Source of the DNA: Ignavibacteriota bacterium
GTDB taxonomy: Bacteria; Bacteroidota; Ignavibacteria; UBA10030
Length of the DNA stretch: 64,000 bases
Direction of reading: 5' to 3'
Assembly (NCBI GenBank): GCA_963701295.1
Contig: OY969585.1
Location: forward strand, 2,816,001-2,880,000
This document shows, piece after piece, positions 4,226 through 23,164 of the stretch. The notes under the pieces were generated by a model. It had not been told where the DNA came from and ran no database searches. It worked only from the letters and a program-made list of their open reading frames with translations. Each line of letters starts with the position of its first letter. Within the stretch, counting starts at the first letter, position 1. A program made the translations under genes and the position numbers.

Positions 4226-4381
4226 GCCTAACGGATCAGCGCTAAGCGGCGGCGTTGATAATTTTCAAGTTGCTGGAAACGAAACAAGTTTATGATATCA
4301 ACTTTCAAATAAACACAAAACCTATGCTCGCCATGAATTTTACAGTGAGCTCATTCCGTCAGCTTGAGCGCCTGGTTAGGC
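4226..4381 (-). repeat. attC-like site (156 bp)
   Basis: GCCTAAC GGATCAGC GCTAAGC ... GCTTGAGC GCCTG GTTAGGC on the + strand. Confidence 0.9.
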
Positions 4382-11349: not shown

Positions 11350-11694
11350 TTAACGTAACCAGACAAAGCTACCATTTATCTCTTTAGCAAGTGTAACTGC
11401 GCCGTTGCCATAGTCATGACAAAAAATGTATTGATGAGGTAAGCGCAGTGCGACATCTTTAAATTTATGGTTTTTGTCCATAAGCTCGTCAAGAACTTGT
11501 TTAGAGCGTGATATTTTAGCTTTTGCCATTTCCGGAGTTGTATTCTCAATGTTCCATTCTGAATAACTATAAACGACTAAACAATTATCCTTCTCTTTCG
11601 AGAATACAACGCCATGATAATTAAAGGCATTACCCTCAATAAATTGATCTATGGCAATTTCAATACGCTGTGGCGTTGCGTCGGTAATATCCAT
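11350..11694 (-). CDS. Cassette: hypothetical protein (114 aa)
   Basis: The ORF fills the cassette, whose ends form a perfect 15-bp inverted repeat (GTTAGGCAGCGTAAG / CTTACGCTGCCTAAC). Confidence 0.75.
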   Translation of the reverse strand: MDITDATPQRIEIAIDQFIEGNAFNYHGVVFSKEKDNCLVVYSYSEWNIENTTPEMAKAKISRSKQVLDELMDKNHKFKDVALRLPHQYIFCHDYGNGAVTLAKEINGSFVWLR

Positions 11695-11982
11695 TATTCT
11701 TCCTTACGCTGCCTAACGGATTGCGGCTAAGCTGCCGCATGACCAACTTTAATTAACCACAAAACGAAACGAGTTCATGCTGATAACAAAATTAACATGT
11801 ACTCAACCAATGAAGTACTGAAAAGTTAATAATAAAAACGTCAAACCACCATCAGCCATGTAAATTGCTCCAACGCTCATCCGGTCAGCTTGAGCCGCTG
11901 GATATTACCAAAAAGGAATCTCCCGATTATGTACATTGATAATTCTCTAGGTCACCAACATCCACAATCTAAGGAGATTCCC

Positions 11983-12984
11983 ATGTATTACTCAGGTATC
12001 GATTTGCATTCTGATAATTGTTTTATCACCACTGTTGATGACACTGGTGCTGTCATCAAGCGACAACGTGTCGAGAATAACAATGAACGTGTTCTTGATT
12101 ACTTCCACTCTCTGCCCGGTCCTCATCACGCAGTCGTTGAGTCTACCACAGGATGGTACTGGCTCAACGATCTTCTCAGCGATCACGGCATCGAGCTTGT
12201 CCTTGCTCACGCCAAATATCTCAAAGCCATCAGTTATGCTAAAGTTAAAACAGATAAAGTCGATTCGCAAACTCTTGCTCTTCTCTTACGACAGGGACTC
12301 ATTCCACGGGCTCACAAAATCAGCCGAGAACTACGCGGCCTGCGCGATACCATGCGTATTCGTCTACGGCTCGTTCAGCAACGAACTGCCAGTCTTCTGC
12401 GTCTCTACAGTATTCAGACCAAATTTAACGGCTCTGTTCCGGATCCGTATCGTTTTCAACTTGCTGTCTTGCAACATACCAGAGACACTTTTACTGCTCA
12501 GATCCTCTCGCTGGAAAAATCTCTCCATCCTGTGCTGATTCCCAACGACGATATTCAACGGCTCTTGCACATTCCAGGTATCGGCAAGCTCACCGCATTC
12601 ACGGTGTATCTTGAAATCGACGGCATTGAACGATTCGACTCCGATAAAAAGTTTGTCTCTTACTGCCGACTCGTCCCTGCTGCCGATAACTCCAATCGCT
12701 CTGTGCACCATCGCTCCAGCAAAGACGGCAATAAGTATCTCAAAATCGCCTTCTCCGATGCCGCTGTTCATGCTATTCAGTACTATCCGGAATACAAACG
12801 CTTATTCCAGAAATTAGCTCGTCGCTCCAATGAGGCGACTGCGCGAACCGTCGTTGCCAAAGAACTTGCGAAGATTGTTTACTATGTCTTAAAAAACAAA
12901 ACAATATATAAAGGTCTCAAAGGTCAGCCGATCAGCCGGCATAAATCTCAGCAGTGGCCGCGCCTCTCAAGCCCGCTTTCCTAA
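11983..12984 (+). CDS. IS110-family DEDD transposase/recombinase
   Basis: GIDLHS, VVEST, KTDKVDS, IPGIGKLTA, and a GNKYLK motif; SD AAGGAG. Confidence 0.95.
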   Translation: MYYSGIDLHSDNCFITTVDDTGAVIKRQRVENNNERVLDYFHSLPGPHHAVVESTTGWYWLNDLLSDHGIELVLAHAKYLKAISYAKVKTDKVDSQTLALLLRQGLIPRAHKISRELRGLRDTMRIRLRLVQQRTASLLRLYSIQTKFNGSVPDPYRFQLAVLQHTRDTFTAQILSLEKSLHPVLIPNDDIQRLLHIPGIGKLTAFTVYLEIDGIERFDSDKKFVSYCRLVPAADNSNRSVHHRSSKDGNKYLKIAFSDAAVHAIQYYPEYKRLFQKLARRSNEATARTVVAKELAKIVYYVLKNKTIYKGLKGQPISRHKSQQWPRLSSPLS

Positions 12985-13140
12985 CTGATCCCGACTGCGT
13001 CGGGATCGTTCGCTGGATTGGGAAGAGAGTGCGCTGTGCCGTGGTAATATCTGGAACATCTCGCTCGACGAGATACGCTTTCACCATCGTTTCTTCAATG
13101 AGTGAATGTAAATCCGTAAACTGGTTTGGACGGCATTGCT
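12971..13140 (+). ncRNA. Candidate bridge/seek RNA of the IS110 element (boundaries approximate)
   Basis: Two stem-flanked loops carry guides for the target (CCTAAC 12980-12985; CGCTGG 13011-13016) and the donor junction (GGTAATATC 13043-13051; TAAACTGG 13117-13124). Confidence 0.75.
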
Positions 13141-13294
13141 CTGGTAATCGCCTGTCTATTCGATAGAGAACGCGGCATCGGCACGGATTCGGTCGTCCTT
13201 AATGTTAAAGAACTCTGCATTCCGATTGCGCGGAACGCATCGGGAGTATATTATTTACTTGACTCTTTCCTTTTTAAACTGGTTAGGCAGCGCT

Positions 13295-13699
13295 TTATTT
13301 CTTATCGTTCTTTGAATCTAATTTTTTCATCTCGAAACCTCTAACGATGACATACGCAATGAGAGCAACCAGAAAAAATATAAGGAGCATCCACGCAATA
13401 CTCTGCAATGAATCGATAATAGATTTGTACACCTCTATAATCCATCGGTCAGAAGTAAGCTGAAGAATTCTGCCTTCTTTGTCCGATGTAATGTACTTTT
13501 CGAGATCCCATAATCTCACTCCGCCGGAAATGCCAACAACAAATATTGCAAAGAGGATGTACCGTCGCCAAGTGGGAGCCAGATCCTCGCTGACAAGTCG
13601 GCTAAGAATTTTTGTAATGGGTCGTGCGAAGAGGAATGCAACCAAAGTTGACATCGCCAATGCAATAACGAAGGTTACAATTAACAATGTGACAAACAT
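13295..13699 (-). CDS. Cassette: hypothetical 3-TM membrane protein
   Basis: 134-aa hydrophobic ORF, SD AGGAGG; cassette ends form a perfect 16-bp inverted repeat. Confidence 0.82.
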   Translation of the reverse strand: MFVTLLIVTFVIALAMSTLVAFLFARPITKILSRLVSEDLAPTWRRYILFAIFVVGISGGVRLWDLEKYITSDKEGRILQLTSDRWIIEVYKSIIDSLQSIAWMLLIFFLVALIAYVIVRGFEMKKLDSKNDKK

Positions 13700-22108: not shown

Positions 22109-23164
22109 TCAGCATACGCTCCGATGATAATAATCTAAATTTAATTCCAGATTTATTTTATTCACTTCATTGTACAGTTGCTCGGGTTGTAAATGAGCAT
22201 AGAGCTCAGTCGTTTGCGCCGATGAGGCATGGCCTAATAATTTAGAAACTGAGTATAAAGGAACAGCAGCCTTTACAAGAGCCGTCGCAAATGAATGGCG
22301 GAGGCTATGAAGGTGAAGATTATCGTTAAGCCCGGCACGTCTGACATATCTCTTAAATTTCTGTGATACTGTTCCTTCTTTTAATTTACTCCCTTTTTGA
22401 TCATAGAAAACAGTTTCACATTCAAATCTTACAATTTGTTTTCTTTCTTTTAGCAATCTCCACAATTCCTCATTTATGGGGACGACACGGTTTCTTCTCG
22501 TTTTTGTAGTGAAAGAATCTGTATTTCTTACGAGGATCACTTTGGCATTAAAATCTACGTCACTCCACTGTAATGAAAGAAGCTCCCCCAATCTGAGGCC
22601 AGATAATATAGCCGTAAGGACTAAATCACGGAAATCAGTATCCCTGACTGCAAAAAGGAATGTTCTAAATTCACTTTCAGTGAAGTATGCAGGCACAATC
22701 TCACTTACTTTCGGTTTGGTGACTTTTCTAAAAGGATTATGTTCAAGAAAAGACCACTGCACAGCTTTCTCAAAGGCTGATGCAAGGGATATATAGTATT
22801 TCCTCGTGCTCCATTCTGAGGCTTCCACTTTTTTCACACTCAGGAAGTGTTCAATCTCCCGAATACCGATTGATTGCAGTGGTTTATCTCCCTCCACACG
22901 AATCAACTCCCTAAATGCAGTCTGATATGTGGTGTATGTTTTCTTTGTCAAAACACCTGATGCATATTCGAAGTATTGCTTTACAAAATCCGAAAGAATA
23001 ATTCTTTTAAGGTTTTGTTTCTTCTGGTGTTCTTCAACTTGGAATTGCAAAAGAAAAGCGAACGCTTTAGATTTCTTCTTGCACTTTGTCGAAACCTTAT
23101 TTCTCTTTCCGGTTTCATCATGAGAGAAGACATAATACACGCCACCAATTTTTGACAGGAACAT
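22109..23164 (-). CDS. Phage/island-type tyrosine integrase
   Basis: SGLRLGEL, KTRRNR, HSLRH, LLGH and TELY catalytic motifs; N-terminal arm-binding-like domain; no IntI-specific insertion visible. Confidence 0.93.
   Translation of the reverse strand: MFLSKIGGVYYVFSHDETGKRNKVSTKCKKKSKAFAFLLQFQVEEHQKKQNLKRIILSDFVKQYFEYASGVLTKKTYTTYQTAFRELIRVEGDKPLQSIGIREIEHFLSVKKVEASEWSTRKYYISLASAFEKAVQWSFLEHNPFRKVTKPKVSEIVPAYFTESEFRTFLFAVRDTDFRDLVLTAILSGLRLGELLSLQWSDVDFNAKVILVRNTDSFTTKTRRNRVVPINEELWRLLKERKQIVRFECETVFYDQKGSKLKEGTVSQKFKRYVRRAGLNDNLHLHSLRHSFATALVKAAVPLYSVSKLLGHASSAQTTELYAHLQPEQLYNEVNKINLELNLDYYHRSVC

Follow-up and report, generated by a model that had tools for sequence, protein, structure and literature searches.

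A multi-copy IS110-family insertion sequence at the R'' box of attC sites in an Ignavibacteriota genome, with a predicted two-loop bridge RNA

The split attC site, the element and its genomic copies

The window (the whole 64,000-nt stretch of the Ignavibacteriota contig analysed here) contains, between positions 4226 and 17002, a gene-cassette array on the minus strand with long attC sites (~150–200 nt) and no integrase nearby; several of these cassettes encode secreted proteins whose C-termini resemble, by eye, Por/T9SS sorting domains. One attC of the array is interrupted by an insertion sequence (IS) of 1381 bp at 11902..13282 on the plus strand, running opposite to the cassettes, with one core copy counted at its right end and its limits set by nine identical copies with differing flanks. 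The large left part of this attC lies at 11711..11901 (minus strand) and comprises the R' box (11711-11717), the L' box (11726-11732), the L'' box (11888-11895), a 5-nt spacer and the G of the R'' box (11901), which the IS has split from the remaining R'' box at 13283..13288 (minus strand; TTAGGC on the plus strand). The split site belongs to a cassette with a 134-aa ORF (13295..13699, minus strand) and is followed by the next cassette, with a 114-aa ORF (11350..11694, minus strand); neither ORF has a Pfam match. On the cassette strand, joining the two parts restores a full attC, with its R and L boxes pairing at 14/14. Farther along the window, a tyrosine recombinase gene (22187-22951, minus strand; 391-aa frame) matches the integron integrase model only weakly, below the cut-off, and the single integron integrase above the TIGR02249 cut-off in the genome lies ~690 kb away from the window.

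Within the IS, a ribosome-binding site (11971-11976, plus strand) precedes the gene for a 333-aa recombinase (11983..12984, plus strand), leaving 81 nt of non-coding sequence upstream of the gene and 298 nt downstream. The protein combines a RuvC-like DEDD domain, PF01548 (D7, E53, D91 and D94), with a C-terminal PF02371 domain and a catalytic serine, S237, which aligns with the catalytic-serine motif of IS621 and sits in NSN rather than the usual SG; its assignment to the IS110 family, made earlier in a sequence-only reading of this DNA, is upheld by these domains and residues. An AlphaFold single-sequence model (pLDDT 45) was set aside. Sub-terminal inverted repeats of 9 bp, which the sequence-only reading had passed over and which reach 13 bp in some relatives, are located 8 nt inside the left end (AAAAAGGAA, 11910..11918, plus strand) and 7 nt inside the right end (TTCCTTTTT, 13267..13275, plus strand).

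The genome (3.64 Mb, one contig) holds nine identical copies of the element and two divergent ones (81–83% at the DNA level, 89% in the protein). All 11 copies sit at the same attC base, between the G and the TT of the R'' complement (written G|TT below), antisense to the cassettes, and the R'' target proposed earlier thus recurs in every copy. Two of the nine identical copies have common flanks, leaving eight independent insertion events for the identical element, and each of the ten distinct sites in this genome scores as attC (p 0.03 or less). The element therefore displays the IS110-family traits of a specific target, a fixed orientation and the lack of a true target duplication (11/11 copies; shared stretch 1–4 nt). 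Empty alleles of the occupied cassettes were absent from the genome, and the target was rebuilt from the flanks and from empty attC sites.

The two divergent copies (G000:C1:2408632-2410027 and 2396324-2397736) match each other across 74 nt on the left flank plus 1239 nt of the element itself and then diverge, with the right end of the latter, GTGG, mismatching its own donor guide, ATGG; this pattern likely reflects a recombinant between variants. Lone IS right-end remnants followed by TTAG or CTAG occur in G000:C1 near positions 1810046, 2382028, 2384981, 3157480, 3160833, 3333607 and 97794; several are fused into attC-like sequence, and they are traces of older insertions by related elements.

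Guide sequences, junctions and RNA structure

The sequence-only reading had described four readable guides at and after the end of the gene, and every string it quoted was found where it had been placed: CCTAACTG at 12980, GATCCCGAC at 12987 with GTCGGGATC at 12999, CGCTGGATTGG at 13011, TGCCGT at 13037 with ACGGCA at 13130, GGTAATATCTG at 13043, TAAACTGGTTTGG at 13117, and CTGG at both 11898 and 13279. As delimited here, all on the plus strand, target guide 1 (T1; CCTAAC, 12980..12985) is the reverse complement of the core G plus TTAGG; target guide 2 (T2; 13011..13018) reads CGCTGG, the attC spacer plus core, followed by AT, the predicted handshake dinucleotide matching the IS left end; donor guide 1 (D1; GGTAATATC, 13043..13051) is reverse-complementary to the core G together with the IS left end; and donor guide 2 (D2; 13117..13126) consists of TAAACTGG, the IS right end plus core, followed by TT, the predicted handshake dinucleotide matching the target. 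The four guide strings together appeared in 0/200,000 base shuffles of the 286-nt region (product of single rates ~1.5e-8). The TAA that ends the recombinase ORF lies within CCTAAC of T1, an overlap already pointed out in the earlier reading, and the stop codon coincides with this TAA in 63/73 parsed loci, the exceptions including frameshifted genes, copies with CCTCAC (read-through by 4 aa) and locus L103.

For covariation, we parsed 100 loci, comprising 74 from genomes (almost all Ignavibacteriota/Bacteroidota), the 15 closest of 80 metagenomic loci and the 11 own copies. Parses of L098, L100, L101 and L102 were corrected by hand, two right junctions (L032, L075) and two D2 guides (L019, L021) were left out, and incomplete loci fell out, giving 83–84 loci per guide. 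Over about 83 related loci, all four guides vary jointly with the target flanks or the IS ends. Counted over unique pairs, with relatedness ignored, guide–DNA identity totals were higher than in any of 5000 permutations, whichever guide was considered: 353 against a mean of 314.5 and a maximum of 339 for T1 (56 pairs), 267 against 203.7 and 229 for T2 (51 pairs), 222 against 203.5 and 217 for D1 (33 pairs), and 180 against 125.2 and 145 for D2 (25 pairs). In a control that set cognate against crossed pairings, T2 matched at 169 versus 100 of 205 positions and D2 at 175 versus 88 of 180. Position -3 of D2 matches in 25/25 pairs, across all four bases A, C, G and T; T2 carries a G opposite the target T at -2 in 16/51 pairs, D1 pairing is poor beyond ~7 nt, and the two divergent own-genome copies have a CCTCAC guide that matches neither flank. 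The proposal of four guides is thus borne out by covariation with target and donor across relatives. The sequence-only reading had also named what would speak against it, namely homologs that keep the same loops on other targets. L103 (Ga0070683_100160752), a clade member of 44% identity whose ORF ends 44 nt before guide 1, sits on a non-attC target (7/14 box pairs), and both its target guides are altered, to AGAGAACC and CTCTG, fitting the new flanks; on this check, the outcome favours the guides.

The genome also offers 110 empty attC ends, located inside arrays in nine regions delimited by us, as a comparison set for site choice. GCTGG precedes the junction in 7/8 independent insertions versus 31/110 empty ends (p 0.0014), GCTGG|TTAGG is found in 6/8 versus 11/110 (p 9e-5), and the commonest attC type, CGCCTGG (48/110 empty ends), received 0/8 insertions (p 0.02); all six bases of CGCTGG are matched in only 3/9 identical copies. 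Site preference among attC ends follows the guide sequence. These counts bear on an alternative in which the protein reads the folded attC hairpin like an integron integrase and the RNA matches are secondary or only fine-tune the register. Consistent with such recognition, all own-genome insertions are in attC, the guides are short and mismatch-tolerant, and, among the 95 occurrences of GCTGGTTA in the genome, the 63 outside the 32 attC ends all lack the element. However, the choice among structurally similar attC sites tracks guide sequence, the guides covary base by base, L103 occupies its non-attC target through a guide change, and attC ends account for 11 of the genome's 13 GCTGGTTAGG strings, which makes sequence nearly sufficient by itself. 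We therefore regard recognition of the hairpin by the protein as improbable and retain guide-directed targeting.

Across the clade, 39 of 75 rebuilt sites score at least 11/14 attC box pairs in a simple R/L box pairing out of 14 with 5–8 nt spacers; sites scoring below 11/14 may be long or divergent attC, or non-attC. The right flank begins with TTA in 71 of 74 distinct flanks. The left flanks of L019, L021, L024 and L011 show an incomplete attC with a TTGACTTTT stretch resembling an IS right end shortly upstream, and are possibly nested or rearranged insertions. The right junction of L075 turns back into non-coding sequence of the element itself, as in a tandem duplication or a self-insertion.

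The sequence-only reading had further taken CTGG as a 4-nt shared core, which the junctions do not support. The two junctions have 1, 2, 3 or 4 nt in common in 13, 35, 17 and 12 of 77 loci, respectively, and the 12 loci that reach 4 nt are the element's nine copies and three copies of one close relative. Where target and guide differ, the right junction tracks the donor guide at -3 in 46/46 cases and at -4 in 59/60; the C and T of CTGG are therefore ordinary guide-paired flank positions, and we rejected a 4-nt core. Position -2 behaves as part of the exchanged region, with the target base present in 10/23 discordant cases, and the last G is always shared. Junction comparison accordingly points to a putative 2-nt core, GG, at 11900..11901 (left copy) and 13281-13282 (right copy) on the plus strand. 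The predicted handshake dinucleotides match in 75/83 and 78/83 loci, yet they are nearly invariant, and the exceptions show no covariation (AA in 8/83 loci; TG against a GT target in L103, uncompensated); a handshake role for AU/UU is only tentative. In IS621, handshake guides match the incoming partner (PMC13626964).

The predicted target-binding domain of the bridge RNA spans 12955..13040 (plus strand), and its helices are conserved and show compensatory changes; GG at 12956-57 closes it by pairing with CC at 13039-40. It begins inside the gene, and the first 30 nt of the RNA would therefore also encode the C-terminal tail of the protein. On the donor side, the conserved feature is the inner stem between the guides (13053..13115, plus strand), with a GGA/TCC base, a covarying third pair (A-U 16, G-C 17, U-A 1; n=34) and variable hairpins within. 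The helix TGCCGT/ACGGCA, previously proposed to close loop 2, forms in the single-sequence fold, but at least five of its pairs are kept in only 2/34 aligned sequences, and we rejected it as a conserved helix; the conserved partner of the CC in TGCCGT is instead the GG at 12956-57. The consensus over the 34 aligned sequences, derived from the same alignment that scored it, has five helices with 93.9% of cells paired and two-sided changes in 9/16 consensus pairs (0/500 shuffles equal; slid controls 24–49%). Single-sequence folding is weak (z -1.68). The region thus combines two features expected of a bridge RNA: four guides that pair with both target and donor strands and overlap at the core, and a conserved secondary structure, well supported in the target domain and confined to the inner stem on the donor side.

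It could be argued that only a short target-loop seekRNA is functional, the donor matches not being guides and the ends being read by the protein via the inverted repeats. A seekRNA of 70–100 nt is the abundant species reported for IS1111 elements and is sufficient for ISEc11 (PMC11187229), and a conserved outer helix is lacking on the donor side here. Against this stands the covariation of D2, the tightest of the four guides (175/180 over the last 5 nt), for which selection on RNA–donor pairing is needed. We consider a functional target loop alone very improbable and continue with an RNA that has both target and donor guides. In the distant ISGsu4-like loci L116 and L125, we observed tandem or extra target-type loops downstream of the gene.

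Phylogenetic position and relation to known systems

Phylogenetic placement used 45 rows out of 76 representatives (LG+G4, rooted on one long branch), with frameshifted and redundant rows excluded and no IS621-type row contained. The element and its relatives form a clade (100/98) that joins the ISGsu4-like elements (99/98), with canonical IS1111 elements apart (99/96). With an ISGsu4-family protein (plasmid record AP028203.1) the recombinase shares 31.4% identity (E 5e-46); it shares 19–24% with members of the ISEc11, IS5075, IS4321 and ISKpn2 families and with L173, and 21.6% with L175, an ISPa21-type protein encoded between smr and qacEdelta1 in NZ_LT991958.1, the interval given for ISPa21 (PMC7232449). 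The AU test rejects a single clade with L175 (p 9e-58; a single ISPa21-type protein was used) and one with all five canonical IS1111 elements (p 0.006). Only three distant related loci were found in viral contigs.

These results bear on whether the element is a plain member of the described IS1111-attC group (ISKpn4, ISPa21, ISPst6, ISPa25) that reached Ignavibacteria, a link the sequence-only reading had drawn. The likeness is considerable: both have a DEDD recombinase that is, or here is likely to be, RNA-guided, a downstream non-coding region and sub-terminal repeats (PMC11187229, PMC13604230, PMC3001079), and both target attC antisense to the cassettes, with the top-strand match 5' of the bottom-strand match (PMC11187229, PMC3001079). 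Nevertheless, the protein belongs to a separate clade at ~22% identity to the ISPa21 type, and the insertion points differ. ISKpn4, ISPst6 and ISPa25 insert within L'', at AA*CG (Table 1 of PMC13604230), with which the insertion of L175 agrees, whereas the element studied here inserts at G|TT in R'', 7 nt away from the L'' site. The sub-terminal repeats lie 8 and 7 nt from the ends here, unlike the 7 and about 3 nt of the IS1111 definition of Siddiquee, with a repeat spacer in the circle of 15 nt versus 10 nt; the target loop here starts within the coding sequence; and the hosts are Ignavibacteriota/Bacteroidota and other environmental groups. Of that definition, the long downstream non-coding region is present, but full-length transposase kinship is not (19–24% identity). 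On phylogeny and insertion point we therefore rejected IS1111-attC membership, which we hold to be extremely improbable, and the link reduces to functional likeness. This lineage stands outside the IS1111-attC group, and its attC targeting arose independently or through a separate retargeting.

The nearest named elements, ISGsu4, ISGsu5, ISShfr7 and ISShwo5, form the sister clade and have similar downstream RNA motifs by eye, but are only ~31% identical, and the ISGsu4-family loci L083 and L181 lie outside attC (8/14). The source data of PMC11187229 place ISGsu4 under IS110, and PMC11208160 groups it with the other three; a literature search on the four names returned nothing relevant. In the sister clade, L087, L154 and L180 have TAAC guides, abut G|TT and carry unusually long non-coding regions, with only L154 passing the attC score; attC targeting may therefore predate the clade. 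A description of the clade or of its insertion point was not found in the open literature, bioRxiv supplements aside; the ISfinder entries of ISShfr7 and ISShwo5 may mention attC.

With IS621 and ISCro4, the element shares two guide pairs, each arranged as left guide, stem, right guide and handshake dinucleotide (PMC11208160, PMC11208158, PMC13626964; PDB 8wt6, 9t56), a putative 2-nt core, the DEDD residues plus serine, and a predicted target-loop handshake AU facing donor AT. It differs from them in carrying the RNA downstream rather than upstream of the gene, in sites read in inverted orientation, in a core of GG (CC on the other strand) rather than CT, and in a donor region without a conserved closing helix; protein similarity is weak (E 6.5e-8 and 1.2e-5). 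Group IIC-attC introns are likewise RNA-based mobile elements that enter the attC bottom strand antisense to the array, but they are retroelements that use reverse splicing, with no DEDD recombinase or bridge RNA (PMC3001079).

An earlier study purified the seekRNAs of the attC-targeting ISKpn4 and ISPst6 and mapped them, the matches following the same order as here (PMC11187229); another predicted bridge RNAs for 93% of the ISfinder elements in the IS1111 group and 86% of those in the IS110 group (PMC11208160). Supplementary Data 2 of the latter includes 11 targets (target_seq136-146) that by eye resemble attC R'' ends centred on GT; in its main text the term attC occurs in the references only, and the attC-like targets stand without comment. 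Surprise is limited, because the basic mechanism and guide-RNA attC targeting are already established, the latter experimentally for ISKpn4 and ISPst6; new are the separate branch and the different landing spot.

Proposed mechanism and consequences for cassette arrays

Taken together, the data very probably describe a multi-copy IS110-family IS that inserts at G|TT of attC R'', likely by bridge-RNA-guided recombination with a predicted two-loop RNA at and after the gene end. Copy number, the fixed site, site preference, guide covariation, RNA helices and phylogeny come directly from the sequence analysis; for the remaining steps, we infer the circle, promoter, transcript, RNP, cleavage chemistry and handshake role from analogy. 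As in IS621 and ISEc11, the IS ends would join in a circle, building a promoter TTGACT-17-GATATT from the outward -35 hexamer TTGACT (13259..13264, plus strand), which stands 17 nt before GATATT in the computed junction; for IS621, a single-strand copy-out has been proposed (bioRxiv 10.64898/2026.08.31.748434). A transcript from this promoter would run through the gene into the RNA. Through CCTAAC and CGCTGG, the target loop would pair with both strands of the attC end, and the donor guides GGTAATATC and TAAACTGG would do likewise at the circle junction. After RNA-guided synapsis, serine-mediated strand exchange would take place around the GG core, as in IS621 (PMC11208158), and the AU/UU handshake, with two pairs before and four after exchange, would favour insertion. 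Read on the other strand, target and donor take the form left arm, CC, right arm, and the RNA that of left guide, hairpin, right guide, as in IS621; insertion would be fixed opposite to the cassettes because the layout maps onto IS621 when read from that strand.

No circle junction was detected in the contigs of eight runs (contigs drop rare forms), the 182 loci or the genome; no transcript of the element was observed, and a promoter/terminator scan stayed at chance level. RNA-library contigs of relatives span 13025-13267 (X16, depth 103.8) and 13025-13197 (X18); they come from other strains with small word shares and no control and are not counted as evidence.

For the cassettes, insertion changes the GTT of R'' to GAT at the left junction, and both the R box and the stem matter for recombination at attC (PMC7439510); the split attC is therefore probably weakened or dead, with two cassettes fused. 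A more far-reaching picture, which we regard as rather unlikely, would place the element in a third IS110 lineage distinct from both IS1111 and IS621. Its bridge RNA would be of the IS621 type but inverted, with a target guide doubling as the recombinase stop codon, and insertion opposite to the integrase cut would leave the split attC able to recombine, the element travelling as cassette cargo.

One genome with more than 110 attC sites carries 11 full-length copies together with several right-end remnants, which makes these elements a real force on cassette arrays outside Proteobacteria. More broadly, RNA-guided IS110 elements appear to have reached attC more than once, via unrelated proteins and at different bases, and the loci assembled here form a natural base-by-base covariation set for the bridge RNA of a branch without a solved structure. 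The apparent non-CT core, the tolerated -2 mismatch and the retargeted member offer usable design rules for testing a new compact recombinase.

One finding speaks against a dead site: two copies (G000:C1:234624-236008 and 2474332-2475716) share exactly one cassette unit in different arrays, 148 nt on the left and 445 nt on the right, of which the genome holds no empty copy. Both breaks of the unit lie no more than 5 nt from an R' crossover. Cassette mobility would account for the arrangement, but gene conversion, or separate insertions into two duplicate cassettes, would do so equally well.
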